Positions 1,113-16,551 of a DNA stretch of 64,000 nucleotides are shown here, in pieces. How positions within the stretch are numbered: position 1 is the first letter of the stretch; every line of letters begins with the position of its first letter. The notes below the pieces were generated by a model that did no database searches, was not told the origin of the DNA, and was given only the letters and a program-made list of their open reading frames with translations. Source of the stretch: Candidatus Levybacteria bacterium RIFCSPHIGHO2_01_FULL_38_26 (lineage in GTDB: Bacteria > Patescibacteriota > Microgenomatia > Levybacterales > UBA12049); the NCBI GenBank assembly GCA_001782075.1, contig MFNO01000016.1, positions 5,600 to 69,599 of the forward strand, in the 5' to 3' direction. A program made the position numbers and the translations under genes.

Positions 1113-1239
1113 CTCTAAACCTATTGTAACACAAACTGTTTAATGCGTAGATGGATGAGTTTATTCGGCTTATGCATAATTTGAAAAGAACATTTTAATC
1201 ATCAAAAATACCAAATAAAAAAATGGAGGCAAAGCAAAA

Positions 1240-1764
1240 CTAGGGCAAAAATGTAGGAGTCAAAGAGGGGTCAGCGGCAGGTGTACAGACTATCCCGGCT
1301 CTTCCCTGGTTAGTTGCGAAAGCAAACCATGCTATGTTTGGGGCACACTTACTGTTTTCAGAATTAGATTCCAGCCTAGCATACACTACAGCCTGAGGAG
1401 TACCTGCTACCAACCCCGTATTGTAACAATACCCCTGAAAGACTGTAGGAGTAGTACAAGCGAAAGCACCACTATATGCTGGATTAGCTGGAAACGCTTG
1501 TATCTCTCCAGCAGACACCAACTGATTTGGAGCTGTAGTCCACTCCGCGCTAGTTAGGTACTGACTTCTTACCGTGTAATAAGCCTGGAGAGCTCTTCCT
1601 AATTGTCCAATAGAAGTTTTTCTTCCAGCGTCTCTTCCTCTAGCCAACTGCTGAACCGGATCAATTGCTACTAAAACCACTGCTGCCAAAATACCGAGTA
1701 CTGCGATGACGATAAGAAGTTCAATTAATGTGAAGCCTTTTGATGATTTAGATAAGTTCTTCAT
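1240..1764 (-). CDS. type IV pilin / pseudopilin
   Basis: Leader MKNLSKSSKG followed by FTLIELLIVIAVLGILAAVV (prepilin cleavage/methylation motif G|FTLIE); Cys pairs in the C-terminal domain. Confidence 0.85.
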   Translation of the reverse strand: MKNLSKSSKGFTLIELLIVIAVLGILAAVVLVAIDPVQQLARGRDAGRKTSIGQLGRALQAYYTVRSQYLTSAEWTTAPNQLVSAGEIQAFPANPAYSGAFACTTPTVFQGYCYNTGLVAGTPQAVVYARLESNSENSKCAPNIAWFAFATNQGRAGIVCTPAADPSLTPTFLP

Positions 1765-1847
1765 TTATTTTTAAAACATATTTAGTGTAATCATAATCTT
1801 TAAATCTTGTCAAGAGGGCATTTTACTATAAGTTGATAAACGAGTGA

Positions 1848-2204
1848 TTAAAACAAGGGCACGTTGAAAAAATCTCCTACTATAGCAACAACAAAAAATG
1901 CCAAAAGCGCGACAACAAGCCCCACGATAGCGTATGTTATCTTTTCCCGAGCAGACTGAATTTTTTCTCTCTCTCCCCTTGCTATAATATAGCGAATCGA
2001 TCCCCAGAGGATATAGCCGATTGACAGAAGAATTATGATAGTCAGAAAGACGCTAACTCCAAGCTGAAGGATCTTTACTCCCTCAACAAATAAACTTCCC
2101 TCGGGTACGTTGGGTGGGGGAGTTATTCCTCCAAAACTGCCAGGCAAAGTCAAAGCAATATCCATACTACATTTACTGTACGTTAACAAAAACGGTTTTG
2201 TCAA
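1848..2204 (-). CDS. small membrane protein, unknown function
   Basis: 118 aa, two hydrophobic segments; start overlaps the histidine-kinase stop (operonic). Confidence 0.4.
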   Translation of the reverse strand: MTKPFLLTYSKCSMDIALTLPGSFGGITPPPNVPEGSLFVEGVKILQLGVSVFLTIIILLSIGYILWGSIRYIIARGEREKIQSAREKITYAIVGLVVALLAFFVVAIVGDFFNVPLF

Positions 2205-3538
2205 GAAAGAGGACTCGCGACTTTGACGGAAAATGTGAATGCAGAACCCTTGTCTTCTCCCTCAGACTCTACCCATATTCTACCACCATGCAATTCTACT
2301 ATAAGCTTACATAAATACAGTCCAAGTCCTGTCCCTTGAATATTTTTCTCTTTTTGTTTGGTAATCCCGACCATGCTAAATTTTTGAAAAAGTTTTGACA
2401 TGTCTTCTTTTTTTATCCCTATTCCATTATCTGAAACACATGTTTCTATAAAATTGTCTTTTTGGTTGAGTGAAACTGTAACTTTTCCTCCCCTTGGCGT
2501 AAACTTCAAACTATTTCCTATCAAATTCATCAACACTTCTTTTATTTTGCTGGAGTCTCCCCAAATCTCCGAAAGAGCAGGGGAGAAAGTCTCCATAATC
2601 TCAATTTGAAACTCTTTTGCCCGAGGGGTCATTTCCGTCACTACTTCCTTTACCAGATCATTGAGCCTAAGTCTTTTAAGGTCAAGAGTAATTTTCCCAG
2701 ACTCGATACGGGAAATGTTCAACATGTCGTTAACAAGCGCTATCAAACTATTGGTTGATCTATACGCAATATTTAGATAATCTTTTTGCTTTTCGGTTAC
2801 ATTTCCTCCGCGTCCCTGTAAAACCATCCAGATATAAGATTTAATAGCCACCATTGGAGTTCTTAGCTCATGGGACGCAAGCGACAAAAACTCATCTTTT
2901 AGCTTATCCAGTGTTTTTAATTTGTCATTTGCCTGCGACAATTCTTTGGACAATCTGGCAAGCTCTACATTTTTTTTATATACTTCCTCATTGACGTTCC
3001 TAAGGTCCTCTGTCGCGTCGCTGACTTTTTGTTCAAGCGTCGCATTGAATCTCTGAATTTCTTCAAAACTCCTGGCGTTTTGTATCGCGACAGCTGTCTC
3101 TGGCGCTAGAATCTTGAGAGCCTGAATTTCGTATGGGGTATACAAACCGCCCAGCAACTTCCTTCCCAGAAGCAACAGCCCAATATTTTCCTCTTGGGTA
3201 CGTAAACATACTACAACGGCAACATCAAGCTTTTTTAGTATATCTTTGAGCTTACCTTCTGGCAGTTCGTTAAAAACTAAAATTTTTACTTGGTCAGAAA
3301 GAATTGCTATTTCCTTCTCGTCAAATTCAGGGACTGAAGCATAACCCTCGTGCAATACTTGGTAAATTTTACTGTCTTTCGTCAGAAGAACAATTGCTCC
3401 ATGACTTATTCGCATTGCTGAAAGAAGTTCAGAGAGCAAGCGGTGCCCCAAATCTTCCAGTCGAAGAGTCGATGCCATAATTGTAGCTAAGTTATAAAGT
3501 ATGCCATGGATCGTCGAGGCGGACTGTTTAATATCCAT
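2201..3538 (-). CDS. sensor histidine kinase (GAF-like N-terminus, HisKA, HATPase_c), cytoplasmic
   Basis: H-box SHELRTPMVAIKSY, N-box LIGNSLKFT, G-boxes DNGIGI / GTGLGLYLCKLIVELHGG; coiled-coil linker; no TM segment. Confidence 0.85.
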   Translation of the reverse strand: MDIKQSASTIHGILYNLATIMASTLRLEDLGHRLLSELLSAMRISHGAIVLLTKDSKIYQVLHEGYASVPEFDEKEIAILSDQVKILVFNELPEGKLKDILKKLDVAVVVCLRTQEENIGLLLLGRKLLGGLYTPYEIQALKILAPETAVAIQNARSFEEIQRFNATLEQKVSDATEDLRNVNEEVYKKNVELARLSKELSQANDKLKTLDKLKDEFLSLASHELRTPMVAIKSYIWMVLQGRGGNVTEKQKDYLNIAYRSTNSLIALVNDMLNISRIESGKITLDLKRLRLNDLVKEVVTEMTPRAKEFQIEIMETFSPALSEIWGDSSKIKEVLMNLIGNSLKFTPRGGKVTVSLNQKDNFIETCVSDNGIGIKKEDMSKLFQKFSMVGITKQKEKNIQGTGLGLYLCKLIVELHGGRIWVESEGEDKGSAFTFSVKVASPLS

Positions 3539-3580
3539 ATCAAAAGAATAATCCAGATTGTGTTTATTGTCAAACCCAAA

Positions 3581-3859
3581 CTACAATAATAACTGCGGCC
3601 TTTGGTCTTGGGGAATTTTAGAAAGAACATCTTTTACCGCGTCTTTGCATACCTCAACCGACGCCTGACCAAAAAGCTCTCTGTATTGCCCAACCAACCT
3701 CTCAACAATTGTCTTCTGATCTCCATCAAATCTCACATCATGCTTTTCCCAATCAACATTTAATCCCTGAACCTTTCTTGCCTGCTCGAGCGCCACAGGA
3801 CCAATAATCCCTTCTTGCTCCCTAATAATTTTTTCAACTATTTGGGCAAAAATATCCAT
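3581..3859 (-). CDS. hypothetical protein (92 aa)
   Basis: ORF in operonic position between the membrane protein and the histidine kinase; no recognisable motif. Confidence 0.35.
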   Translation of the reverse strand: MDIFAQIVEKIIREQEGIIGPVALEQARKVQGLNVDWEKHDVRFDGDQKTIVERLVGQYRELFGQASVEVCKDAVKDVLSKIPQDQRPQLLL

Positions 3860-3862
3860 AGG

Positions 3863-4717
3863 TTATTTCCCTCGTAACTTAGATAAAACAGTTCGCATCT
3901 GTAATATACTAAGCGTCATTAAAAAGTACGCAACAACATACATGTAGTCCAAAATGCTGGCAGGATAATACTGTTCATAAAAAAAAATAAATGAATAATC
4001 TGCCAGAAACTGGCTGGCAAAGGCTATAATCAAAAGCATGATTCTATTTTTCATTATTCCCCCTAGTATATTCCTAGTAAGACTATAGGTAAGTATACCT
4101 ATTGAGATATATATTGCTTGTCCCATTGGATATCCAAAATCAAAAAATGTTTTAAGTGGATTTTCAAAATCCAAAGGATAGTTACGTAAGAACAAGAAAT
4201 AAGCAACGCTCAACATTATAAGAGGGACAATAATCGCCTGAAGCTTGTTCGCTAAGGATCTCAATGAAACCTTTACTCCTGAGGCTTTCGCAATAAGGTA
4301 AGAACCGTATATATAAAAGGGAATTGTACCAAAGAATCCAATATCTCCAAGGGAAGGGTAAGGAATTTCAATGCCAAGTACAAAAATATAAAAACTATAA
4401 GCAAGTTGACCAAACTCCTGCGCAAAAAGCCCTAGAGAAAACATGATAAGACCTCTGCCCATTACGCTTTTGAATCCGCCCCATGCCCTTGAAATGATAA
4501 ATCCCCAAATTCCGCCCCAGACTGCAATCAATCCATAGGTATGCCCAAAAAGTCCATAAAGGCCATGGTCCCTAGGTAAAAAAATGTGAATCAATATCCA
4601 CCAAAGACTAAAAAAGAAAAATAGGAAAACCGCAACCTGCGTTGGTCGATCTTTCCTAATTTCCTCCAACATACAATCAGCGTATAGAATATTCATAGAA
4701 TTGTCAAGTTGACTCAA
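3863..4717 (-). CDS. polytopic membrane protein, unknown function (possible sensor partner of the downstream kinase)
   Basis: 284 aa with about 7 hydrophobic helices; immediately upstream of a soluble histidine kinase on the same strand. Confidence 0.45.
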   Translation of the reverse strand: MSQLDNSMNILYADCMLEEIRKDRPTQVAVFLFFFFSLWWILIHIFLPRDHGLYGLFGHTYGLIAVWGGIWGFIISRAWGGFKSVMGRGLIMFSLGLFAQEFGQLAYSFYIFVLGIEIPYPSLGDIGFFGTIPFYIYGSYLIAKASGVKVSLRSLANKLQAIIVPLIMLSVAYFLFLRNYPLDFENPLKTFFDFGYPMGQAIYISIGILTYSLTRNILGGIMKNRIMLLIIAFASQFLADYSFIFFYEQYYPASILDYMYVVAYFLMTLSILQMRTVLSKLRGK

Positions 4718-4737
4718 AAATCGTATAATATAAGTCT

Positions 4738-5649
4738 GTGATTCCTCAATATCCAGATTTTAAAAAACTAACATTAGAGGATAAAAAAGAAATAGAAAAA
4801 CGTGTGCGTCAATACTCACCCTATTCTGACTTTAATTTCTTAAGCTTATGGAGTTATAACATAGACGATGACATTGTCATTTCAGATCTTTACGGCAACC
4901 TAGTAGTTCGTTTCCGTGATTACATTACCAATGAACCATTCTATTCTTTTATCGGCATCAATAATTTAACCAAAACCATAGATTCTCTTTTGAGGAAAAG
5001 CCAAGAGGAAGGACTAAAACCGATGTTAAAACTCATCCCAGATATTGTAAATAAATCAAGCCCCAAAGATACGAATAGATTTATTTTTGAAGAAGACAGA
5101 GACAATTTCGACTATATATTTTCTGTTTCTGAAATTGCGCAGTTAAACGGAAACAAATACCATACGCAAAAAAACTTTGTGAATAGGTTCCAAAATCTTC
5201 ACCAAAATTTTACCATTAGCCTATTGGATTTACTAAATGGTGACGTACAAACCCAAGTCCTCAATGTTTTTCACACGTGGAAAAGAGCAAAAAATTACGA
5301 CGATGACCATACTCAGCGCGAGCTCACTGCTCTAAATAGAACACTAACAAGCTCTTCTGATTTTAATCTAATAACTTTGGGCATCTACAATATAGAAAAG
5401 TCGCTGATAGGCTTTATAATCGCTGATTTATCAGAAGGAGGTTATGCTCAGTCTCACTTCGTTAAGGCTGACATCTCATATCCCGGGGTTTATTACACCC
5501 TTTATTTTTATCTTGCCAAACATCTGCAAGCAATGGGTTATGAGTTTTTGAATAATGGACAAGATCTTGGAATCATGGGGTTAAGAAAGTCAAAAGAACA
5601 ATGGAATCCAGTTGTATTTTTAAAAAAATATAAAATTACTTATTTATAA
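4738..5649 (+). CDS. hypothetical protein, possibly DUF2156/GNAT-like (MprF C-terminal-domain-like)
   Basis: 303 aa; N-terminal YSPYSDFNFLSLWSY motif recalled from DUF2156 proteins. Family assignment is from memory only. Confidence 0.4.
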   Translation: MIPQYPDFKKLTLEDKKEIEKRVRQYSPYSDFNFLSLWSYNIDDDIVISDLYGNLVVRFRDYITNEPFYSFIGINNLTKTIDSLLRKSQEEGLKPMLKLIPDIVNKSSPKDTNRFIFEEDRDNFDYIFSVSEIAQLNGNKYHTQKNFVNRFQNLHQNFTISLLDLLNGDVQTQVLNVFHTWKRAKNYDDDHTQRELTALNRTLTSSSDFNLITLGIYNIEKSLIGFIIADLSEGGYAQSHFVKADISYPGVYYTLYFYLAKHLQAMGYEFLNNGQDLGIMGLRKSKEQWNPVVFLKKYKITYL

Positions 5650-6523
5650 AATACAAACCCAGAAGGATAACAATCATAGCCAATAGTTTTTTTTGTTTGC
5701 TTCCGTAAGCTGCCTCTCTTAAGTATTTTGGAAAAAGCGGATAAAATACTAAAGCAAATAGAAGTACATATATCGGCTGTATCCCCTCAATAACTTTGAC
5801 AAGCGATACCGGACCTTTACTTATCGCAAGATTATTTGTAAATTCCGCAGCTATGCCTATGAGTTCAGCAGATATAAATACTAATATCCATTTCTTAAAA
5901 CTCTTGTTGAATTCACCTAAAAACCTCCTTCCCTCCCGAAAAAAAACAGAAAGAAAAACAGCTCCTAATCCCATTCCCATAGAGAAATACATATACCCGC
6001 TCCAAAAATCTAAAGCGTTATAAACATATTTTCCGCAAATCGCAACCAATGTATATAACAAGGCTGCAAATATCATGAAATAAAGAGCCTTGGAAAACTT
6101 AAATCTTTTGATATTTATTGCTGAAATAGTAAAAGACGCAAGAAGAATTAGCACAAAACCGATGTACTGGCTCGAGGTTAAAGACTCATCTAAAATAAAA
6201 TAAGCAAGGAATGGCACAAAGGCAGGAGAAAGACTAAATAGGGCAATCACTACTGATGGAGATTCCACATCCAACGCATGAAAATAGAACAAGTAGCTTA
6301 TTACGGTCAAAAATCCTGCAAGCAGTCCCAAAAAAATAATTGTAGGCGAGGAGATTGTAAGAGGAAAAAAAAATAAACCCAGTAGGGGCAGAAGAGCGAA
6401 AAATCCGGAGATAATAGCACCAAAAAACGGCGAACGGTATACGTTTCTTAGTAAATTGTCATCTATAATATTAACAATGGCAAAAAGAGCAGGACTTAGA
6501 AGGGCTATGTAAAACCACTCCAT
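5636..6523 (-). CDS. EamA/DMT-like permease
   Basis: 295 aa, about 10 TM helices in two halves typical of drug/metabolite transporter fold. Confidence 0.5.
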   Translation of the reverse strand: MEWFYIALLSPALFAIVNIIDDNLLRNVYRSPFFGAIISGFFALLPLLGLFFFPLTISSPTIIFLGLLAGFLTVISYLFYFHALDVESPSVVIALFSLSPAFVPFLAYFILDESLTSSQYIGFVLILLASFTISAINIKRFKFSKALYFMIFAALLYTLVAICGKYVYNALDFWSGYMYFSMGMGLGAVFLSVFFREGRRFLGEFNKSFKKWILVFISAELIGIAAEFTNNLAISKGPVSLVKVIEGIQPIYVLLFALVFYPLFPKYLREAAYGSKQKKLLAMIVILLGLYFINK

Positions 6524-6524
6524 G

Positions 6525-6929
6525 TTATTTATCTATATTTTCCGCTGGATATTTTTTTCCTCGTGTCTCAATATAAAATTCAACATCTTGAGTTTTAAAT
6601 ATTTCTTTAAAATAATCTGTAACTTTTTTAGTATTGAATTTTTTACAAGAGTAAACGTCTGCCGTGACAAATCTTCTCTTGATAAACGTATGCAAACTTA
6701 TGTGTGATTCTTGAATAATAACAAATCCAGACCATCCTCCTGGATCTTTTTTTCCATTGGATTTAGCAAAAACAACATGTGGCTCTATCAATTTTCTCAT
6801 GCCTATTTTTTTTGGAAGTGTATCTAAAATATTATGGACTAGTCCTTTATTATTCAGCGTGTCAGGATTACAGTTGTACATATCAATCATTAGGTGGAGC
6901 CCAAAAGGGGTAATTTTTGTTTTATTCAT
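6525..6929 (-). CDS. speH: S-adenosylmethionine decarboxylase proenzyme (pyruvoyl-dependent, SpeH/class 1)
   Basis: GLHLMIDMYNC ... GGWSGFVIIQESHISLHTF: the ESH self-cleavage site and overall length (134 aa) match archaeal/Bacillus-type AdoMetDC. Confidence 0.75.
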   Translation of the reverse strand: MNKTKITPFGLHLMIDMYNCNPDTLNNKGLVHNILDTLPKKIGMRKLIEPHVVFAKSNGKKDPGGWSGFVIIQESHISLHTFIKRRFVTADVYSCKKFNTKKVTDYFKEIFKTQDVEFYIETRGKKYPAENIDK

Positions 6930-7027
6930 ATATTAAATTTATAACATACTAATTTTTATAGAACAACAAGACATGTATTATAGCCTATATTTGACAAATA
7001 AACCAATTATGTGTTAAGTTTTTTGTT

Positions 7028-7402
7028 ATGGCGCAGAAGATTTTGCTCATTGAAGACGATACCTATATAAGAAAACTATATGCGGAAGTTCTAGAACAAG
7101 CAGGATACGAGGTTGAGGTCGCAGAAGATGGAATTTCTGGTTTGGACAAGATCAACAGGGAAAAATTCGATGCAATCCTTTTAGATGTAGTGATGCCTAG
7201 GCTAGATGGGCTGGGAGTTCTTGAGTCGCTTGAAAAAAATCCGCCACCTCAAAAAAACGGCCCGATAATACTTCTGAGCAATCTTGCCAAAGACCCTATC
7301 ACCCAAGGGGGTCTGGATAAAGGGGCTGTCGGCTACATCGTAAAATCCGACATCAACCCTGATGAGTTGATTGAAAAAATACAGAAGTTTTTGACTAATT
7401 AA
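7028..7402 (+). CDS. response regulator, receiver domain only (CheY-like)
   Basis: ILLIEDD acidic pocket, phospho-acceptor D in LLDVVMP, conserved S/T (LLSNL) and K (YIVK); no output domain. Its stop overlaps the pilC-derived stop (TTAA). Confidence 0.85.
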   Translation: MAQKILLIEDDTYIRKLYAEVLEQAGYEVEVAEDGISGLDKINREKFDAILLDVVMPRLDGLGVLESLEKNPPPQKNGPIILLSNLAKDPITQGGLDKGAVGYIVKSDINPDELIEKIQKFLTN

Positions 7403-7526
7403 AATGCTTGAATCAGGTTGTAAATTGGAGTAAGCACAGATATTATCAAAAGCGCAACCCCAACTCCCAACAAAACCATAATAAAAGGCTCCATTGCTGT
7501 AGTGAGAGTTTTGATTGCCTGATCAA
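7350..7526. repeat. direct repeat copy 1 (~177 bp, identical to 9808..9985)
   Basis: Visual alignment: acatcaaccctgatgagttgattgaaaaaatacagaagtttttgactaattaaaatgcttgaatcaggttg...ttgattgcctgatcaa occurs twice. Spans the RR 3' end plus the pilC 3' end. Confidence 0.9.
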
Positions 7527-7782
7527 GCGTTAGAATAGATTTTCTATCAATAAAAATTTCTAGGAGTTTTAGAAGGATAATCCGATTCTGCGGAATTCTT
7601 GTTCCTCTCTGCCAGTGAGAGAAAATGCTGTCTTCATAAATAAAACCTTTTTCCGCAAGCGCACTGCCTAATTCAGACAAGGTAGAAAGTTCAGCTTTCA
7701 ACCTGTATTTTTTAAAAAGCGTCGAGAACTTGCTGGTCTCTGACTGCATATCGCAAGCTAATTCTACCACAACCTTTGTCAA
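7399..7782 (-). CDS. chimeric ORF: XRE-type HTH fragment fused to the last 41 aa of PilC (derived from repeat copy 1)
   Basis: N-terminal part LSELGSALAEKGFIYEDSIFSHWQRGTRIPQNRIILLKLLEIF resembles Cro/C1 HTH. C-terminal DQAIKTLTTAMEPFIMVLLGVGVALLIISVLTPIYNLIQAF is identical to the PilC C-terminus (9858..). Confidence 0.5.
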   Translation of the reverse strand: MTKVVVELACDMQSETSKFSTLFKKYRLKAELSTLSELGSALAEKGFIYEDSIFSHWQRGTRIPQNRIILLKLLEIFIDRKSILTLDQAIKTLTTAMEPFIMVLLGVGVALLIISVLTPIYNLIQAF

Positions 7783-7838
7783 CTTGCCTGAAGAGACTGT
7801 TATATAGCATAGCTTTATTTTTTTACTTATTTTTATCT

Positions 7839-8288
7839 CTACTGTTTTATCTGGGCTGTCTGAATCATATTCCCCATTGATGAAGTGCCTGAAGTGGAAA
7901 CTGTGCCTTGTGTTGATAAATGTTGCGTTGCAGTTTTTGGAGTTGGTGTTGGCGTAGGAGTTGGAAAATCGTCTATCCAGATATCTTTTCCTGCCGAATC
8001 AGTTCCTATCCAGACTTGTGCTTGATTTAAATCTGACCGCCAATACCAACCACCGTATTGTTTTGCTTTTTGCGTTGTTTGAGTCTGGTGTGATACTGAT
8101 TTAGCTTCTGGTGTTGGAGAAGGAGTTAGAGTAGGCGTGGGAGTAGAAGCTAGAGGTAGCGAGATGGTTGTAGATACACCTTTTACAGATGACCTTGGCC
8201 ATTCATTCAAAATAATGACACCACTACCAATCAGGCAAATAACAAAACCTAATCCCAGAATCGTTTTGTTCATGTTCATATTGATCAT
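7839..8288 (-). CDS. membrane-anchored/secreted protein with TPTPTP linkers
   Basis: N-terminal hydrophobic anchor, two (TP)n low-complexity linkers flanking a small domain (QYGGWYWRSDLNQAQVWIGTDSAGKDIWIDDF). Confidence 0.45.
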   Translation of the reverse strand: MINMNMNKTILGLGFVICLIGSGVIILNEWPRSSVKGVSTTISLPLASTPTPTLTPSPTPEAKSVSHQTQTTQKAKQYGGWYWRSDLNQAQVWIGTDSAGKDIWIDDFPTPTPTPTPKTATQHLSTQGTVSTSGTSSMGNMIQTAQIKQ

Positions 8289-8554
8289 TTTGTATATTTA
8301 CTATTCCACCATTGCAGAATTTTTTTAACGTTTTGATTAAGTTCATGTGGTCTTGAATCAATACCAAAATGGTCTTTTAGTTCTTTTGAAAGAAAAGAAG
8401 TGAGTTTATCTGAATCTGCTCTTTTACGCATTAATGAGAAAATCGGCGCAATTAAACAATCATATTCGTCTTTCGGTCCACCTTTGAAAGGTAAAACTCC
8501 GATAAAATCCCATGTATTTAATAAACGAATTAGCTCTTGTTTTTGAGATTTCAT
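8285..8554 (-). CDS. small cytoplasmic protein, candidate (orphan) immunity protein
   Basis: 89 aa, ATGA start/stop overlap with neighbour; positional inference only (downstream of an Rhs toxin tip). Confidence 0.35.
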   Translation of the reverse strand: MKSQKQELIRLLNTWDFIGVLPFKGGPKDEYDCLIAPIFSLMRKRADSDKLTSFLSKELKDHFGIDSRPHELNQNVKKILQWWNSKYTK

Positions 8555-8623
8555 ATATAGAATAAGTACGTTTTTGCATTAATACTCATAGGCCTAATAT
8601 TTTAGCACTAAATAGTCAATAAT

Positions 8624-8977
8624 TTATATAAGGAAAAATGCATGAAATAGAAAATTGATAAAAATAATAGCTAGAAAAACCCAAAATGAGCTACGGGTTT
8701 TTCTAGCTAATTCATTCAATTCTTGATCTTTATGACTTTCAAAAATTATCTTCCATTGAAGAAGAGGGACAATCGGTAACTTCTGTAAATAATCAAGAGG
8801 ATCTTTAGAAAAATAGTTAGTTGCCTCTCCGAATAATAGAGGATAATCAGGATTTATTTTTTTTCGATATAACCTAACATATTTCTTATAAGACCTTAGA
8901 AAGATAATGCAACCTAAGAAAAAGGGTGTAAAAAACGTAATTATTATAAATGGGAAGCCTACATGAAGCGAATCCAT
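8624..8977 (-). CDS. small membrane protein, candidate immunity protein for the upstream Rhs-CT
   Basis: 117 aa with N- and C-terminal TM segments; located 16 bp downstream of the toxin-tip ORF on the same strand. Confidence 0.4.
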   Translation of the reverse strand: MDSLHVGFPFIIITFFTPFFLGCIIFLRSYKKYVRLYRKKINPDYPLLFGEATNYFSKDPLDYLQKLPIVPLLQWKIIFESHKDQELNELARKTRSSFWVFLAIIFINFLFHAFFLI

Positions 8978-8992
8978 ACAACTAGTTATTTA

Positions 8993-9769
8993 TTATTGAG
9001 ATATCCATGGAAATGCCCATGAATACGAGGCACCACCATGAATTTCAACTGGTAGCAATACAACTCCGCCTATTGTAACATCAGGACCAGGAGTAAATCC
9101 ACCACTAAATGTCTTAATTGAGGGATCATCATGATCCTGGGCTACGTCAATACCGCCTGCCCATGCAGATCCTCCAGCAAACGTATCACGACCCGCTATT
9201 TGTTCAAAATTATTAGCATTCGTAACAAATCCTGTCACTCCGACTCCAGACGCTACCCCTGCAACACCACCTCCACCTACAGAAGCTATTGGCCCAGCCT
9301 GCCAACCTGTCCCCCAATTAGAAGAATTTGAATCTTTTGCTATTCCAATACAGAATGAGCAAGTACCATATATACCTGCTCCTAAGTTGGCACTTACACA
9401 AAGTCCAATAGCCATTTCTCCCGAGGGATCAGAAAGATTGATTGGGTTATTCAAGGCATAAGCATAAGGATTCTGCGTCTGAGGGTTATTAACCATACCA
9501 TCTATTGGATCTCTTGAAATGAATTGACCATTAACAGGATCATAATAACGTGCTCTCATATAGTACATGTCACTTTCTTCATCGAGATATTGTTCTTGAA
9601 ATTGATATTTTGGAGGGATACTGTTATCATATCGCTTGTTTCCAAAGGGATCATAATCCGTCTGCGATGCTTCGTTTCCGGACGAATTAGACGTAAACCT
9701 TATATTACCCATTCCATCTTCCATAATCCATTCTCGTCCAGAATTTGATCCAGAACCTACGCTAATCAA
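8993..9769 (-). CDS. Rhs/YD-repeat C-terminal fragment: Rhs repeat-associated core + glycine-rich C-terminal (toxin-like) domain; 5'-truncated
   Basis: YDPFGNKRY YD repeat, then MRARYYDPVNGQFISRDPIDG...NPYAYALNNPINLSDPSGE (canonical Rhs core ending in DPxGx), followed by ~138 aa Gly-rich tail (GGGGVAGVASGVGVTG...). No N-terminal region. The reading frame stays open upstream into repeat copy 2 without a plausible start. Confidence 0.7.
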   Translation of the reverse strand: MISVGSGSNSGREWIMEDGMGNIRFTSNSSGNEASQTDYDPFGNKRYDNSIPPKYQFQEQYLDEESDMYYMRARYYDPVNGQFISRDPIDGMVNNPQTQNPYAYALNNPINLSDPSGEMAIGLCVSANLGAGIYGTCSFCIGIAKDSNSSNWGTGWQAGPIASVGGGGVAGVASGVGVTGFVTNANNFEQIAGRDTFAGGSAWAGGIDVAQDHDDPSIKTFSGGFTPGPDVTIGGVVLLPVEIHGGASYSWAFPWISQ

Positions 9770-9807
9770 TTCTTGATTTAGTCCATAGATGTTGAATTCG
9801 GAAACAT

Positions 9808-9985
9808 AACATCAACCCTGATGAGTTGATTGAAAAAATACAGAAGTTTTTGACTAATTAAAATGCTTGAATCAGGTTGTAAATTGGAGTAAGCACAGAT
9901 ATTATCAAAAGCGCAACCCCAACTCCCAACAAAACCATAATAAAAGGCTCCATTGCTGTAGTGAGAGTTTTGATTGCCTGATCAA
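9808..9985. repeat. direct repeat copy 2 (~177 bp, identical to 7350..7526)
   Basis: See copy 1; here attached to the intact pilC 3' end and to an orphan remnant of the RR 3' end. Confidence 0.9.
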
Positions 9986-11066
9986 CTTCTCCCTCAAAGT
10001 ACTCCGAGGCTTTTAGCAATAACTCATCTATTTTCCCAGTCTGCTCGCCAACCTCGACCAAATGTACCAGAAGAGGAGGGAACAGCTCGTGATGCGAAAG
10101 AGAAGACGCCACAGATTCACCCTTTTCAACTCTACTGGAAACATCAAGAATCGCGTTTTTGTAATGAATATTGCCTGTAATTTCAGAAACCCTGTTCAGA
10201 GAATCAACAATTAAAGTTCCGCTTCCCACCAATAATCCAAAAGTTCTTGAAAACTCGGTAAGTATTGTCTTTCTGATTAGGGGACCAAAGATTGGAAGCT
10301 TTAACACTAAATTACCAATCACTACTTGTCCAGTTTCTGTTTTGTTCCAAAATCTAAAAAGGACAGCAAAAACTACCATAAAAATTAACCCGATTGGCCA
10401 ATAAGCAACTGTAAAATCAGAAATACCAACAACAATCCTGGTTATCAACGGCAACTCAAGATTAGGAATGCTTGTGTAAAGCACGGAAAGAGTAGGGATG
10501 ACAAAAACCATCATTATAAACACAACAACAACCATTCCTGATACAACTATCGAGGGGTAAAGAAGAGCTGCTTTAATAGTACTTTTGAGCTTTTGATCTT
10601 TTTCAAGATTATCTGCAAAACGAAGAAGCGCCTTGTCCAGAAGTCCAGAGGATTCAGAAGCCTTAATCGTCGAGACATAAACAGGCGAAAAAACCTTTGG
10701 AAATCTTCCGACAGCTGCTGAAAAAGACTGCCCTCCCTCAATGCCTCCAATAACCCCTTCTATAACCTCCGAAAGAGAAGTTTTTTTTGTCTGGTTTTTC
10801 AAAACCTCTAAAGATCGCACAAGAGTAAGCCCCGACGACAACATAGAAGCCAATTGTCTCGTAAATATTACGACATCACTTGAGGTAACTTTGCCAAAGG
10901 GGAGAGGCAAGTCCTCCAAAATATTGCCACTACTTTTTTTTGAAACCTTTATTGGAAAAAATGCTTTACTTCTCAGGTATTCAGCGGCCTGATGTTCGCT
11001 TTGGGCTTCTATTGTTCCCTGAATTAGTTTTCCTTCTTTGGTTGCCGCCTTGTAAGATAATTTCAT
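9858..11066 (-). CDS. pilC: type IV pilus assembly protein PilC (GspF family inner-membrane platform)
   Basis: 402 aa, two T2SSF-like repeats with 3 TM segments, upstream of pilT/pilB. Confidence 0.9.
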   Translation of the reverse strand: MKLSYKAATKEGKLIQGTIEAQSEHQAAEYLRSKAFFPIKVSKKSSGNILEDLPLPFGKVTSSDVVIFTRQLASMLSSGLTLVRSLEVLKNQTKKTSLSEVIEGVIGGIEGGQSFSAAVGRFPKVFSPVYVSTIKASESSGLLDKALLRFADNLEKDQKLKSTIKAALLYPSIVVSGMVVVVFIMMVFVIPTLSVLYTSIPNLELPLITRIVVGISDFTVAYWPIGLIFMVVFAVLFRFWNKTETGQVVIGNLVLKLPIFGPLIRKTILTEFSRTFGLLVGSGTLIVDSLNRVSEITGNIHYKNAILDVSSRVEKGESVASSLSHHELFPPLLVHLVEVGEQTGKIDELLLKASEYFEGEVDQAIKTLTTAMEPFIMVLLGVGVALLIISVLTPIYNLIQAF

Positions 11067-11068
11067 TT

Positions 11069-12136
11069 TTAAGAAACGAGCTGTAAAAAGTCATCTTGAT
11101 GCAGCGCATAAGCTTTTGCAACTTCGATATCAACTACCCCAGATGAAACCAAGCTTGCCAAAGAAGACTCAAGAGTCACCATACCGGCATCTTTGGACGT
11201 CTGGATAACAGAATCCAAAACATGAGTTTTTCCCTCTCTTATAACATTGGCAACAGCCGGTGTACCAAGAAGTATCTCACAAGCCGGAACCCTACCTCCA
11301 TTTACAGCCGGCAAGAGTCTTTGAGACACTATTCCCCTAAGCGTTGCCGAGAGTTGAAGTCTTATCTGCGCTTGTTGGTTTGCGGGAAAGACATCTATCA
11401 TCCTATCTATTGTTTGAGCAGCTGAGTTGGTATGAAGTGTCGAAAAAACTAAATGCCCAGTTTCGGCAACGCTAATTGCTGTGGCGATAGTCTCTGGGTC
11501 CCTCATCTCTCCAACCAAAACAACATCTGGATCCTCACGAAGAGCAGCTCTTAGAGACGCCTCCCAAGAATGTGTATCAACACCCATCTCTCTTTGGGAA
11601 ATAAGACTTTTTCCAGCTGGATACATATATTCGATTGGGTCCTCTACAGTTAAAATATGAGAAGCTTTATTCAAGTTGATGATATTTATAATAGAAGCTA
11701 ATGTAGTTGATTTACCATGCCCATTGGGCCCAGCAATCAATACAAAACCTTGTTTTAATTTAGCAAAATCATTGAGTATATTGGGCAAATTTAGCTCTGA
11801 AACTGATCTTATGGTCGGGGGGAATAATCGGAACGCTCCGCTTAAAAAGCGTCTTTGATAGTAAATGTTTGCGCGAAATCGCCCTTTGTCGCCGTATACC
11901 CCACCTCCAAAACCGAAAGAAAAATCAAGCTCTTTGTTAGCAAGTAGATACTCCTTTTGTTCTGGGGTCAGTAGGGAAAAAATCATCTCCTCCAAAAGAT
12001 CTTGGGTAAGAACAGGCTGATTGGACATGTATCTTAGGGATCCATCTATGCGAAGAGCTGGAGGGTTTCCCGCCACAAGGTGTAAATCCGACGCGTTATT
12101 TTTAATCGTAAGATGTAACAGTTCTTGTATGTCCAT
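11069..12136 (-). CDS. pilT: twitching motility ATPase PilT
   Basis: MDIQELLHLTIKNNASDLHL N-terminus, Walker A GPNGHGKST, Asp/His boxes (EDPIEY, LVGEMRD, TGHLVFSTLHT) closely matching PilT. Confidence 0.9.
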   Translation of the reverse strand: MDIQELLHLTIKNNASDLHLVAGNPPALRIDGSLRYMSNQPVLTQDLLEEMIFSLLTPEQKEYLLANKELDFSFGFGGGVYGDKGRFRANIYYQRRFLSGAFRLFPPTIRSVSELNLPNILNDFAKLKQGFVLIAGPNGHGKSTTLASIINIINLNKASHILTVEDPIEYMYPAGKSLISQREMGVDTHSWEASLRAALREDPDVVLVGEMRDPETIATAISVAETGHLVFSTLHTNSAAQTIDRMIDVFPANQQAQIRLQLSATLRGIVSQRLLPAVNGGRVPACEILLGTPAVANVIREGKTHVLDSVIQTSKDAGMVTLESSLASLVSSGVVDIEVAKAYALHQDDFLQLVS

Positions 12137-12139
12137 AGT

Positions 12140-13879
12140 TTATTCCTGCGCTACTCTTATCACTTCCTCAATAGTAGTTACTCCACCTAACGCTTTTAGA
12201 TATCCGTCTTGTTTCATTGTAATCATTCCCTCCGAAATAGCCTGTCTTTCTATAGTACCACTATCCGCGTTTTCAGATATAAGCTTTATTATCTTTTCAG
12301 ATACTGGAAGCGTCTCAAAAATTCCAATTCTGCCTAGGTATCCGGAACTACCGCATTCATCGCAGCCTTTTCCTTTGTAAAGCTTGATTTCTTTATTTGA
12401 AGGAAAGAGTTTTTGCAACACATTTTTCATCTCATCCACAATTTGAGGCAATGGAATATAGCTTTCTTTACAATGATCACAAATTATTCTAACAATTCTT
12501 TGGCCCAAAACAGCGTTCATTGTTGACGCCAAAAGAAAGCTTTGAGCGCCTAAATCAATAAGACGAGGAAGCGCCCCAGCTGCGTTTGAGGTATGAAGTG
12601 TCGAAAAAACTAAATGTCCAGTGAGAGCTGCCTGAATAGCCAAGTCTGTTGTCTCCTGATCACGTATTTCTCCCACCAAAATTATATTTGGATCTTGCCT
12701 TAGGAAAGAACGAAGTCCAGTCGCGAAAGTCAGTCCAACAGCAGGATTTATGGCTACTTGATTTACTCCCGTTATCTGATACTCAACAGGATCCTCCAGT
12801 GTCATAATATTGACTCTAGTTGTATTTAATCTGGACAAAACCGAATAAAGAGTTGTTGTTTTTCCACTTCCTGTAGGTCCGCAAACGATAATAATACCAT
12901 GGGGACGTAAAATAGCAGTCTCAAGGTTGCGAAGACTGGCGCCTGAAAGCCCTAACTTCTCAAGGCTTGGAATTCCTCCGGATTTTCTAAGCAACCTCAT
13001 TACTATTTTTTCTCCGTGAGCTGTTGGCAAAACAGAAATACGAAGGTCTACCTCTTTATCTCCTGTTTTAAAGTTGAATCTGCCGTCTTGAGGAATACGA
13101 TGCTCATCTATTTTCATATCTGACATAATTTTTATACGGGAAACCACAGAGTCTTGAACATTCTTGGGAAGGCTTAATTTATCGTACAAGATCCCATCTA
13201 TTCTGTACCTAACCCTTATCCTATCTTCTTGCGGCTCTACGTGAATATCGGAAGACCTGCTCGCCATAGCGTAATCTAAAATCGTTGATACAATTTTGGC
13301 TATTGGCGCTTCCGCGACAGTCTGTGAAATCTGCGTTGTATCATAAGTATGCACTTTTTCAGATACTTCTACCGACTCCTTCAAGGCTTCTCCGACTTCG
13401 CCAACCAAACCCTGCCTGTACTGTACGCTAATTGCTTGCTCGACGTCATTCTTTTCTGCCGCAAATACTTTTATGTTAAGCCCTGTTCTCCTACGGATAA
13501 AGGAGATTGCCTCAAGGTCAGTAGCGTTACTCATCGCGACTGACAAAGTCTTTAGTTTATCGTCGTAAGCAAAAGGGATTAAAGAAAATCTTTCCGCCAC
13601 AGAAAACGGTATAAAACCAAGCGCCTGAGGAGAAAACGATGATGAGCCAAGGGAAATAAAAGGCAATCCCAAGCTTTTGGCTTTGGCTTTTTCTATTTCC
13701 TCTTTTTTAATTAAATTAAGAGATTCAATGGCCTTTTCTTCTGGAATACCTTCTGTCGCGCTTTTTAGCTTCACTTGCCTAGCTTGCTCATGAGTCAACA
13801 AACGTTCGGACACGAGAGCATCAACTAAACTTACTTTGGCGTTAGGTATTGTTGAAAAAGGATCGGGCATTATTTTCAT
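12140..13879 (-). CDS. pilB: type IV pilus assembly ATPase PilB (GspE family)
   Basis: N-terminal GSPII-like domain, Walker A GPTGSGKTTT, His box, C-terminal tetracysteine motif CDHC...CDEC. Confidence 0.9.
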   Translation of the reverse strand: MKIMPDPFSTIPNAKVSLVDALVSERLLTHEQARQVKLKSATEGIPEEKAIESLNLIKKEEIEKAKAKSLGLPFISLGSSSFSPQALGFIPFSVAERFSLIPFAYDDKLKTLSVAMSNATDLEAISFIRRRTGLNIKVFAAEKNDVEQAISVQYRQGLVGEVGEALKESVEVSEKVHTYDTTQISQTVAEAPIAKIVSTILDYAMASRSSDIHVEPQEDRIRVRYRIDGILYDKLSLPKNVQDSVVSRIKIMSDMKIDEHRIPQDGRFNFKTGDKEVDLRISVLPTAHGEKIVMRLLRKSGGIPSLEKLGLSGASLRNLETAILRPHGIIIVCGPTGSGKTTTLYSVLSRLNTTRVNIMTLEDPVEYQITGVNQVAINPAVGLTFATGLRSFLRQDPNIILVGEIRDQETTDLAIQAALTGHLVFSTLHTSNAAGALPRLIDLGAQSFLLASTMNAVLGQRIVRIICDHCKESYIPLPQIVDEMKNVLQKLFPSNKEIKLYKGKGCDECGSSGYLGRIGIFETLPVSEKIIKLISENADSGTIERQAISEGMITMKQDGYLKALGGVTTIEEVIRVAQE

Positions 13880-13908
13880 AATAAAGAATAATTAGTTATA
13901 ATGTCAAT

Positions 13909-14625
13909 ATGCATTCATTTTTAATAGTCTCAAAAATCCAAAAAGCCGCTCTTGAATATGCAGTGAGAAATTGTAAAGAGAGTAAAATAGACAAATTTGA
14001 CATAAGCATCCTGACATTTGAAAAATCAATCGGTATAGAAGATATAAGAAATTTTCAAAAAAAACTAGTTTTAAAACCACTCAGAAGCAAGGCAAAAGCT
14101 GTAATTTTAGATGGGTCAAAAGATGTTACCATAGAAGCTCAAAATGCGCTTTTGAAAACTCTTGAGGAACCGCCTTCTAATACTATTATATATATAATAA
14201 TATCAAATAAAGATCTTGTTCTTCCAACAATTCTTTCACGGTGCCAGGTGATCGAGCTTAGAGACAAAGAATATAAACTTTCCAAAGACGAAGAAGCTCA
14301 ATACCTCAACATCTTAACATCATTATCCTCCTGCGGAGTAGGGGACAGATTAAAACTAGCCCAGGATGTGGCGAAAAACAAGCAAGAGTCGATTCCCGAG
14401 CTTGAAAAGATGATTATTGCGGCGAGGCAAAAATTGATTAATTCCGTATGTCATTCTGAACATAGAGAAGAATCTCTAGAGATTCTTCGGCTAAAGCCTC
14501 AGGATGACAATGCGGTACACAAATATCTTAATATCCTAATATCTTTAAATAAAACCTACGCGCTTCTCAAAACCACCAACGTCAACTCCCGTCTCGCCCT
14601 CGAAAACTTATTTTTGAATTTATAA
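13909..14625 (+). CDS. holB: DNA polymerase III delta'-like clamp-loader subunit (short)
   Basis: AAA+ clamp-loader signatures NALLKTLEEPP and TILSRCQ (SRC motif). Confidence 0.65.
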   Translation: MHSFLIVSKIQKAALEYAVRNCKESKIDKFDISILTFEKSIGIEDIRNFQKKLVLKPLRSKAKAVILDGSKDVTIEAQNALLKTLEEPPSNTIIYIIISNKDLVLPTILSRCQVIELRDKEYKLSKDEEAQYLNILTSLSSCGVGDRLKLAQDVAKNKQESIPELEKMIIAARQKLINSVCHSEHREESLEILRLKPQDDNAVHKYLNILISLNKTYALLKTTNVNSRLALENLFLNL

Positions 14626-14702
14626 AACTTAACTAAACTAGCTTCCAAACATCCATATTCTCCCATATCGCAAAGCTATTCCGATCCCGTATCGGAAGTC
14701 GT

Positions 14703-15164
14703 CTATATAAGTCTGGACTCTCTCAATATATTAAATGTCAAGCCATGGCCGGCCCTTTCAACAAAATCTTCCGTTTCCTGGGGGTTTAAACGCAATATTC
14801 TAGCCATTAATATCGTATCGCCTAAGCTGGGGTGACTACGCTGGTCGCTAACTAACAAATGCACATAAGCATCAGAATAATCTAGACGTCTTGCAAACTC
14901 AGCCTTAGTAACCCCCAATCTCTGTATATAAACTCCTAGTCTTCCTCCAAGGCTTTCCGGCATTACTTCGGGTAAGGCATCAGGGCTAAAGTTTATCGGA
15001 GCGCTAACCATCTCTTTTCGAATCTCTTCTATGGAAGGCACGCCCAGATATGCGTCAACTATTTGACCAAGCTCACCCAGTTGTTCTGGTTTATTTATAC
15101 TATTGATTCTAGAAGTAATATGGTGTTTAATATTCTCGACCATAATAATATTATACAATACCAA
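14703..15164 (-). CDS. HTH (XRE-like) domain protein
   Basis: LGVYIQRLGVTKAEFARRLDYSDAYVHLLVSDQRSHPSLGDTILMARIL resembles Cro/C1-type HTH. Confidence 0.45.
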   Translation of the reverse strand: MVLYNIIMVENIKHHITSRINSINKPEQLGELGQIVDAYLGVPSIEEIRKEMVSAPINFSPDALPEVMPESLGGRLGVYIQRLGVTKAEFARRLDYSDAYVHLLVSDQRSHPSLGDTILMARILRLNPQETEDFVERAGHGLTFNILRESRLI

Positions 15165-15297
15165 AAGATAAAATAAAAATAATCACAAGCTTCTCTAGAC
15201 CTCAGAGTAAGAAATTCCAAAAAAAGCGCTATTACGTATATGATGGGTTTAACCTTTTTCTAATTTTGACCTACATTGTTATAACTGATAAAATTGT

Positions 15298-16551
15298 TTG
15301 ATGATAGGTGGAATTAAAAAAATACTTTATTTCCCGATTGCCTCTTATTTCAAATTCTTCGCCCAAATCAGGTTAAATCGTTGGAATCCAAGAATTATTG
15401 TTATAACAGGTTCGAGCGGGAAAACAACGCTTTTACATCTGATCGAATCACAGCTTGGGACAGCGGCAAAATATTCCCACCAGGCCAACAGCAGCTTTGG
15501 TATACCGTTTGATATTTTGGACTTGCATAGAAAAAACTTAATCTTTTCAGAATGGCCAATTCTCTTTCTACTCGCTCCTTTTACTGCCTTCAAAGCTCCG
15601 CCAAAAGAAAAACTTTATATAGTCGAGGCGGATGTTGACAGACCGAATGAGGGAAAATTTCTTGCAGATTTATTAAACCCCGAAGTTACGCTATGGACCG
15701 GGGTCGGAAAAACCCACGCAGCCAACTTTAACCAGCTTTTAAAAAACAAGAATTTCTCCATTGTCGAAGACGCTATAGGTTATGAATTTGGATTTTATTT
15801 AGAGTCAACTTCCAAACTTGCTATTGTGAACGGAGATTCTGATTTAATAAACAAACAGACAAAAAGATCAAAAGCAGAGATAAAAAATGCCTCTCAAAAG
15901 AATACTGATTATTACAAACTTTTTAAAGACCGCACAGAGTTTAGAATTAAAGGAAAAACCTACTTAATTAATGCCCTGCTTCCAAAAGAAGCGTCTCTTT
16001 CAATCCAAATGACTCTTTCTCTTCTTGAGTGTCTTGATGTTAAACCCGATTATTCGTTCTCAAAATTCACTCTTCCCCCCGGGAGATCCGGAATTTTTAA
16101 AGGCATAAAAAATACTACTATAATAGACAGCTCTTACAACGCAACTCCGGACGGAGTGATTTCTATTCTTGAAATGTTTGAATTTTACCCAAGTAATAAA
16201 AAGTGGCTGGTTTTGGGAGATATGATAGAACTTGGCGAAGAAGAGAAGGAAGAACACGAAAAACTTGCCGAAATAATTGGACGAATGAAACTTGAAAAAA
16301 TTATTCTGGTCGGACCACGTGTGTCAAAGTATACATATCCGAAAATAAAAAATGCAGAAAAATTCCTTATGCCAAAAGATGCAATGGGTTATCTAACAAA
16401 CAATCTAAAGGGTAGGGAAGTGGTATTGTTTAAGGGGGCAAGGTTTCTGGAAGGAATTATCGAGCATCTTTTAGCTGATAAAGCAGATGTGAGCAATCTA
16501 TGTCGGAGGGAAAAAATTTGGCAACAAAGGAGAAAAAAATGGGGACTCTAA
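15298..16551 (+). CDS. Mur ligase family protein (MurF/MurE-like)
   Basis: P-loop ITGSSGKTT typical of Mur ligases, central and C-terminal Mur ligase regions; clustered with cell-wall genes. Confidence 0.65.
   Translation: MMIGGIKKILYFPIASYFKFFAQIRLNRWNPRIIVITGSSGKTTLLHLIESQLGTAAKYSHQANSSFGIPFDILDLHRKNLIFSEWPILFLLAPFTAFKAPPKEKLYIVEADVDRPNEGKFLADLLNPEVTLWTGVGKTHAANFNQLLKNKNFSIVEDAIGYEFGFYLESTSKLAIVNGDSDLINKQTKRSKAEIKNASQKNTDYYKLFKDRTEFRIKGKTYLINALLPKEASLSIQMTLSLLECLDVKPDYSFSKFTLPPGRSGIFKGIKNTTIIDSSYNATPDGVISILEMFEFYPSNKKWLVLGDMIELGEEEKEEHEKLAEIIGRMKLEKIILVGPRVSKYTYPKIKNAEKFLMPKDAMGYLTNNLKGREVVLFKGARFLEGIIEHLLADKADVSNLCRREKIWQQRRKKWGL

Follow-up and report, generated by a model that had tools for sequence, protein, structure and literature searches.

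The stretch of DNA analysed here (hereafter the window; 64,000 nt of contig MFNO01000016.1) derives from a member of Candidatus Levybacteria (OP11/CPR, the Candidate Phyla Radiation) recovered from Rifle aquifer groundwater, and carries next to its pilC gene the severed C-terminal tip of an Rhs toxin. The tip is part of an inserted segment of 2,282 bp (7527..9808, minus strand) that lies between the two copies of a direct repeat and separates two convergent genes. On one side stands the intact pilC gene for the type IV pilus platform protein (9858..11066, minus strand; PF00482 T2SSF, E 2.5e-56), the insertion falling just past its 3′ end; the other flank is formed by a response-regulator receiver gene (7028..7402, plus strand; PF00072, E 1.5e-24). 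Read along the minus strand, the segment holds the truncated rhs reading frame (8993..9808), a gene for a 117-residue protein with two transmembrane helices (8624..8977), an open reading frame (ORF) of 89 codons (8285..8554), one of 149 codons (7839..8288) and a truncated gene for a helix-turn-helix (HTH)-like protein (7527-7782). A first-pass annotation of the same DNA had drawn attention to the first three, and all features that it named are in place on the minus strand; the insertion with its 177-bp duplication of the pilC 3′ end, and the last two genes as further contents of the inserted segment, go beyond it.

Rhs core and truncation of the reading frame

The rhs reading frame consists of 271 codons and a stop, and encodes a YD-repeat remnant, a complete Rhs core and a C-terminal toxin domain (CT). 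Gene callers place its start at TTG 9769 or ATG 9724, the TTG giving the listed ORF 8993-9769 of 258 amino acids. The frame itself is open from 9808, encodes ...YVSEFNIYGLNQELISVGSGS... upstream of the TTG, and is closed by a TGA at 9814-9812. Reading UGA as glycine (code 25) was considered and dismissed: the frame stays closed, and more TAA/TAG stops lie upstream. That the ORF contains an Rhs repeat-associated core, as the first-pass annotation had proposed together with a hidden Markov model (HMM) check, is borne out by this search. The NCBIfam model TIGR03696 (Rhs_assc_core) matches residues 52-130 of the 271-residue frame (E 2.1e-22; 79.4 bits against a cut-off of 32.5), which places the core at 9419..9655 on the minus strand, covering model positions 1-75/76 and ending in an NLSDPSGE cleavage-type motif. 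A second NCBIfam model, NF041261 RHS_core, aligns to the tip with just its final ~87 positions, Pfam-A returned nothing at E<=1, and precomputed annotation records a weak match to PF25023 (TEN_YD-shell). The DPxG motif at the boundary between core and CT is present, NLSDPSGE being followed by MAIG in the window copy, and at the same column the homologues read DPSGL then W, DPTGE then D, and DPSGK then A.

Upstream of the core, about 50 residues of YD sequence are left. They start exactly at the boundary of the 177-bp repeat: both the open frame and the Rhs homology begin at the first unique base of the insert, and the closing stop lies inside the repeat. Neither a signal peptide nor a delivery domain nor a long YD shell is found upstream of the tip. 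Given that the long YD shell and the N-terminal secretion or delivery region of a complete Rhs protein are missing, the window copy is a fragment, in agreement with the earlier description of an N-terminally truncated tip that could not be exported as is. As the last ~130 Rhs residues remain and no export signal accompanies them, the toxin of this copy almost certainly cannot be delivered. The earlier picture of a cassette displaced within an rhs array gives way to that of an insertion at pilC, and the proposed search for a full-length rhs gene sharing the core found neither such a gene nor any second Rhs or YD sequence within the window.

A 2,282-bp insertion between identical 177-bp repeats

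The two repeat copies, 7350..7526 and 9809..9985, are identical at 177 of 177 positions and spaced by 2,459 nt. At the intact pilC, the repeat takes in the final 128 nt of the gene and 49 nt beyond its stop, the latter antisense to the 3′ end of the response-regulator gene; the copy beside the regulator contains the true 3′ end of the regulator gene and, on the minus strand, the C-terminal 42 codons and stop of an ORF that fuses the HTH gene to the pilC tail. Because the flanking copies correspond to the pilC 3′ end and the adjoining regulator 3′ end, we read 7527-9808 as an insertion with target duplication, and because this duplication has not decayed at any of its 177 positions, the insertion should be recent. 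Both of its ends cut genes, one junction severing the rhs frame and the other the small HTH gene. In the resulting fusion ORF (7399..7782, minus strand), 7527-7782 encodes the first ~85 residues of the HTH-like protein and 7399-7526 the duplicated PilC tail, to which alone (residues 86-126) the PilC/GspF models of NCBIfam match. Comparison with a full-length 98-residue HTH homologue (L086, 8054-8350) indicates that the window copy is short of its last ~25-30 residues. The HTH part is joined in frame to the last 42 residues of PilC, including the final transmembrane helix, and the fusion is annotated publicly as a gene of 123-127 amino acids; it is probably a by-product without function.

A repeat of this kind calls for care with the assembly. 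The exact 177-nt repeat is longer than the reads and k-mers used, and several contigs stop within it, one of them (L006) having exactly the length of 2,282 + 2x141 nt expected for a 177-nt repeat at k = 141. The duplication and insertion might thus be an artefact that conceals an intact pilC/regulator junction and a separate circular or tandem element of 2,459 bp sharing the 177 bp. We regard this as highly improbable. The same junctions recur at 100% identity in IDBA, MEGAHIT, JGI and 2012 AMFJ01 assemblies of several Rifle aquifer samples, and the four assemblers, with paired-end resolution, place pilC, repeat and rhs tip on one side, and truncated HTH gene, repeat and response regulator on the other, alike in different samples. 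The uninterrupted junction occurs in no contig with the exact PilC or response-regulator protein, and a 2.5-kb circle bearing two truncated genes and no replication gene is implausible. The sequence of the insert shows essentially no variation across samples; the inserted element is fixed in one clonal population.

The empty site is preserved in relatives. PilC of the window is 50-63% identical to PilC of many Candidatus Levybacteria genomes, and at three such loci (L088, L086 and L114) the convergent response-regulator gene follows pilC after 25-85 nt, with no insert. The closest relative found, L115 (Ga0213870_1003183), has the same backbone of EamA, AdoMetDC, response-regulator, pilC and pilT genes, and its pilC and regulator genes overlap by 4 nt, which is the exact outcome of removing the insert and one repeat copy from the window. 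On the other side of EamA, this relative has an Rhs gene whose CT is of the same family (at least 483 residues; the gene runs off the contig), followed by a gene for a 118-residue two-transmembrane protein and a homologue of ORF 7839-8288; the 89-codon ORF and the HTH gene are absent. Its first 2,343 nt thus hold a seemingly complete arrangement of long Rhs, 118-residue immunity gene and a 161-residue PT-rich membrane protein, convergent with EamA and 1.9 kb away from the site between pilC and regulator gene at which the window has its insert. At L119, a decayed tip and an immunity gene abut the 3′ end of the regulator orthologue, and at L035 a tip, an immunity remnant and a homologue of the 149-residue protein are followed by a convergent HTH homologue. 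These three loci show that tip, immunity, 149-residue and HTH genes recur together in Levybacteria in varied arrangements. Among 79 other pilC loci, none has a CT cassette within 6 kb of pilC.

No recombinase, integrase or transposase was detected among the five ORFs of the insert (Pfam, NCBIfam) or in the precomputed Pfam annotation of ~8 kb on each side. Given the severed genes at both ends, the lack of a recombinase and the length of the target duplication, the insert could have arisen by a template switch, in which replication moved to a toxin locus and resumed 177 nt behind the position it had left, or else by ligation of foreign DNA into a staggered break. A circle that contained the 177 bp may alternatively have integrated in the Campbell manner, which presupposes the junctions. 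A second copy of the 2,282 bp was not detected in the same samples, where unitigs run directly from insert to repeat. Some integrative elements, such as e14 in icd, enter a gene at its 3′ end and bring a substitute for that end with them. The present insertion resembles these in its position at the 3′ end of a conserved gene, in the long direct repeats of that end and in leaving the target intact, but it encodes no integrase or transposase, and its gene-cut ends are unlike those of a defined element.

The CT family and its two-transmembrane partner

The CT (8996..9415, minus strand) is 140 residues long, begins after DPSGE and is rich in small residues (28 Gly, or 20%, 16 Ala and 13 Ser), with 3 basic and 9 acidic residues. 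A word-index search with this domain recovered no relatives; the family was recovered by exhaustive search alone, in which 20 of 1.84 billion representatives matched at E<=1e-3, eight of these also at E<=1e-10, the alignments spanning residues 2-138 of 140. Two of the homologues place the domain at the extreme C-terminus of full-length Rhs proteins: P0007 (2,095 residues; CT at 1968-2087) and P0010 (2,056 residues; CT at 1935-2055), the latter with an N-terminal hydrophobic leader. Many of the others are tips or contig-truncated ends. G75, G81, G110, P122, E124 and G128 are invariant in the family, and C22, D77, S83, H126 and G127 nearly so; the window copy keeps all of them and adds a 9-residue loop insertion. 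The 14 aligned CT sequences match no Pfam family, the CT has no NCBIfam match, and a search of every PDB chain sequence with the CT profile (E<=10) gave noise (Pizza designer propellers, E 0.12). When the CT, the two-transmembrane protein, the 89- and 149-residue proteins and the truncated HTH protein were scanned against Pfam, NCBIfam, PADLOC and PHROGs, the only matches were to the Rhs core and a PHROG of Rhs-like proteins. Judged by its sequence relatives, the CT is a genuine polymorphic-toxin domain of an unnamed family, found on full-length Rhs proteins.

Two short contigs from other Rifle samples (L009 1-170 and L010 1-140) join the window at 9096 and are 100% identical to it from there down to ~8200, a stretch that covers the last 35 CT codons, the immunity gene, the 89-codon ORF and the start of the 149-codon ORF. 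Upstream and antisense, they carry a fragment of ~50 residues of a thiamine pyrophosphate (TPP)-enzyme N-domain (PF02776, E 7e-10), within which the two differ by single-nucleotide polymorphisms; at the junction, the antisense of the CT motif TPGPDVTIGG reads PPIVTSGPGV. The window has no TPP-enzyme gene. These contigs gave rise to the idea that the last 35 CT codons might be read-through into an antisense TPP-enzyme pseudogene, which was rejected, since all CT homologues share the C-terminal GPD...P.E.HGG. L009 and L010 are a separate recombinant, and seem to represent another copy of the cassette, cut at a different point and placed in other surroundings. Within the insert, G+C swings from 28% over the immunity gene to 45% over the CT; this reflects codon content (a Phe/Ile/Lys-rich membrane protein and a Gly/Ala-rich domain), not separate origins.

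The first-pass annotation had placed two candidate immunity genes downstream of the CT and suggested that the three might form a new toxin/immunity pair. The CT and the 117-residue protein of 8624..8977 stand up to this reading on grounds of novelty and linkage, whereas the 89-residue product of 8285..8554 does not. The 117-residue protein has hydrophobic stretches at both termini, forming N- and C-terminal transmembrane helices around a basic helical loop of ~60 residues, and belongs to a family of 21 clusters that share the motifs LYRKKxNPDYP and WKIxFEKHKDxELN between the two terminal helices. Its gene lies directly 3′ of the CT in every related locus for which downstream DNA is available: an HMM scan of all fetched loci found the order CT then immunity gene in the window, L115, L116, L117, L119, L127, L031 (two pairs) and L125/L126. 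The gene persists as a remnant beside the L035 tip, P0004 is a read-through fusion of CT and immunity protein, and at L127 it follows the 2,095-residue P0007. In another sample, a homologue follows an SpvB/TcdB_midN/RHS protein of 2,384 residues. Family members also occur without a toxin (L124, L122/L123). The window protein, on record as ACD_50C00032G0008, matches nothing in Pfam, NCBIfam or PDB. Its model (predicted local distance difference test, pLDDT, 90) is a helical hairpin of long helices 3-40 and 85-116, with a small helical domain between the transmembrane helices, and Foldseek returned no structural neighbour for it. Basic residues adjoin both transmembrane helices on the loop side, so that by the positive-inside rule the loop should lie in the cytoplasm. 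According to these data, conserved gene order supports the two-transmembrane protein as the cognate partner of the CT, with a candidate role in immunity.

The 89-codon ORF is found only in this population. Its product has no match in Pfam, NCBIfam, PADLOC, PHROGs or PDB, and a homologue is absent from L115, L116, L117, L127 and L031; by this comparison it is not a conserved partner of the CT. The 149-residue protein, in turn, has an N-terminal membrane anchor, Pro/Thr-rich linkers and a core reading YGGWYW...GTDSAGKDIW, and is 62% identical to the products of genes adjoining the CT in L115 and L035, a conservation that exceeds that of toxin and immunity protein. Its recurrence suggests a conserved gene that is accessory to, or a neighbour of, the toxin locus.

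Further afield, an aquatic metagenome contig (L031 1-9400) carries a full-length Rhs of more than 1,964 residues followed by four orphan tips of two CT families in alternation, each accompanied downstream by a small gene of its own; one of these pairs belongs to the family studied here. At 7045-7659 of the same contig, a second, more distant Gly-rich CT is paired with a two-transmembrane gene on the opposite strand. The surroundings of the insertion (window 1-16000, and likewise L001) are a type IV pilus neighbourhood with pilB (12140-13879), pilT (11069-12136), and a prepilin peptidase and pilin-like genes (327-2204). A histidine kinase (2201-3538) stands among the pilus genes, as does the response regulator. 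The toxin cassette, the HTH family and the regulator recur near pilC in several Levybacteria.

Predicted mode of action and probable fate of the tip

The Gly-rich sequence of the CT had originally suggested a glycine-zipper toxin. Structure prediction does not sustain this idea and yields an all-beta barrel: the AlphaFold model, built from the 14-sequence alignment (pLDDT 88; predicted template-modelling score, pTM, 0.80), has eight strands, the fourth of them followed by a short helix. The strands alternate between hydrophobic residues, which face one way, and Gly, Ser, Thr or Ala, which face the other; this points to a packed hydrophobic core beneath a side-chain-poor surface. With this model, Foldseek against PDB gave high-probability matches solely to VapG, VapB and VapD of Rhodococcus equi (probability 0.69-0.99, template-modelling score 0.47-0.61, E 0.07-0.4), all other matches remaining below a probability of 0.12. 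In Vap proteins, eight strands form a glycine-rich barrel, the fourth and fifth of them being separated by a helix; many glycines are conserved, and a 'bald' surface binds lipid or detergent (PMC4118825). VapA permeabilises membranes to protons, collapsing proton gradients (PMC10100859). The CT is very glycine-rich, like the Vap family (PF05526; VapD 4csb, VapB 4cv7/7b1z, VapG 5aeo), and as modelled it may share with that family the compact eight-stranded antiparallel barrel, the helix after the fourth strand, the side-chain-poor surface and a Gly-rich last strand followed by Trp. It differs in that an actinobacterial pathogen secretes Vap proteins on their own and without an immunity gene, whereas the CT is the tip of an Rhs toxin, and in that sequence homology between the two is undetectable.

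A second point of reference is Tse5 (RhsP1) of Pseudomonas aeruginosa, an Rhs membrane toxin that is countered by the membrane-embedded immunity protein Tsi5 (PMC9637101). Like the present pair, it combines an Rhs-delivered, non-enzymatic-looking CT of ~140 residues with a small two-transmembrane immunity protein (PMC9637101, PMC10684867), and for Tse5 membrane depolarisation is a demonstrated activity. The Tse5 CT is predicted to be largely helical, however, whereas that of the window is predicted to be all-beta. No Tse5 or Rhs chain was returned by the CT profile search of PDB at E<=10, Tse5 being in the set. Delivery of the window-family toxin also differs in that it cannot here be by the type VI secretion system.

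The Vap-like predicted fold and the membrane-resident immunity partner favour membrane permeabilisation, and we infer from the model that the CT may act at the cytoplasmic membrane as a permeabilising glycine-rich beta-barrel. Several observations weigh against this. The Vap likeness concerns the fold, in a model built from 14 sequences and with weak Foldseek E values; hhalign of the CT alignment against six pVAPA1037 Vap proteins gave a probability of 0.09%; and PF05526 (R_equi_Vir) is matched by none of the 14 CT sequences at E<=10. Moreover, the invariant E124 and the near-invariant H126, D77 and S83 could mark an enzyme active site. These residues cluster with C22 in the conserved motifs G.D.F.GG.SA and P.E.HGG, and envelope-targeting enzymes are likewise accompanied by membrane-anchored immunity proteins. 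The CT might then be an enzyme whose substrate is, for instance, a lipid or a cell-envelope precursor at the membrane, with the two-transmembrane protein blocking the active site or access to the substrate. We hold this alternative to be possible, though doubtful: no enzyme family is matched by sequence or fold, the sole fold neighbours have no known catalytic activity (PMC4118825), and glycine accounts for many of the conserved positions, which is what a tightly packed barrel would call for. Returning to the permeabilising barrel, its broadest formulation would be that the CT founds a family of Vap-fold glycine-rich beta-barrel toxins, delivered on Rhs proteins by CPR and other bacteria, which collapse the membrane potential of rivals and are neutralised within the membrane by the two-transmembrane protein. 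This we advance as a tentative proposal.

For the locus itself, we consider it likely, if by no means certain, that a C-terminal Rhs toxin tip was stranded between pilC and the response regulator in a form that cannot be delivered, and that its intact immunity gene is plausibly kept as protection. A 2,282-bp piece of a toxin locus would have been copied or pasted between the convergent genes, duplicating 177 bp of the target; the piece starts ~50 codons ahead of the Rhs core and breaks off after the first two thirds of a small HTH gene. In the full-length relatives, the CT would be enclosed in a YD-repeat shell of more than 2,000 residues, freed at the DPxG motif and delivered to a competitor, where, as a small Gly-rich beta-barrel, it would permeabilise the cytoplasmic membrane. 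Protection of the producer would fall to the downstream two-transmembrane protein, through an encounter with the toxin at or within the membrane. The window copy probably does not function as a weapon. The cell may retain the intact immunity gene as a defence against neighbours armed with full-length toxins of this CT family, which is plausible as it matches the stand-alone immunity genes of the family in L124 and L122/L123. Three points count against this account. Selection on the immunity gene is unreadable, because the copies do not differ within the population; a donor locus was not detected, the tip having no relatives in GTDB representative genomes or JGI metagenome contigs, with the source genome itself outside the GTDB representatives searched; and the Rhs search covers the 64-kb window, so that a full-length rhs gene elsewhere in the genome could make use of the tip.

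This last point touches on a different role for the tip. Orphan modules of CT and immunity gene (rhs-CT/rhsI) are known in Enterobacteria such as Salmonella Typhimurium LT2 (PMC3967940), as are polymorphic-toxin cassettes more generally (Zhang et al. 2012, PMC3482391). The window locus resembles them in that a truncated rhs fragment, still containing some of the core, is joined to a variable CT and followed by an immunity gene, and in that the same CT family occurs on full-length Rhs proteins and in tip arrays (L127, L031). In Salmonella, orphan tips were shown to recombine into the main gene (PMC3967940), and here the complete core, intact CT and intact immunity gene have been kept, so that the ~390 nt of YD and core sequence (9416-9808) might serve as homology for recombination with a distant full-length rhs, swapping in the toxin/immunity pair of a silent reserve cassette. 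We think this unlikely. In contrast to the orphan modules, the tip does not lie behind a main rhs gene or in an rhs array, the window holding no other Rhs or YD sequence; it sits in a 2.3-kb insertion with a 177-bp duplication at the 3′ end of pilC in a CPR bacterium, its 5′ end was fixed by the insertion junction and not by a displacement event, and exchange with a distant rhs would come at the price of a deletion or inversion of the chromosome in between. Its CT and immunity families are, besides, not among the named families.

The intactness of the pair lends itself to yet another explanation, namely an intracellular toxin/antitoxin pair of the addiction type, in which a product started at TTG 9769 or ATG 9724 and expressed by read-through from pilBTC would stabilise the insert. 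The ORF is intact with all family-invariant residues, the tip follows pilC on the same strand after 89 nt in which no convincing terminator is seen, and the Tse5 CT is toxic when made in the cytoplasm (PMC9637101). We nevertheless give this explanation little credence: promoter and ribosome-binding signals are not above background, a scan of 7000-10200 finding promoter and terminator sites no more numerous than in shuffled sequence, and such a module would be indistinguishable from a simple recent arrival that has had no decay.

Rhs toxins are well known and new CTs frequent, and as such the stranded tip is a modest addition. As an insertion, it is a clean and very recent example of gene-fragment shuffling in a CPR genome, with the empty site kept in a close relative. 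The toxin/immunity pair, for its part, is named in no curated library, and it has full-length carriers and a strict linkage across unrelated metagenomes. A soluble-looking Gly-rich beta-barrel opposed by an integral-membrane immunity protein would represent a mode of membrane attack unlike that of the helical Rhs pore-former Tse5, and opens a way to test for a connection with the Vap virulence proteins, which are themselves poorly understood. Should the tentative kinship in fold be true, the unexplained Vap virulence fold of Rhodococcus equi would be a branch of an older class of interbacterial membrane toxins.

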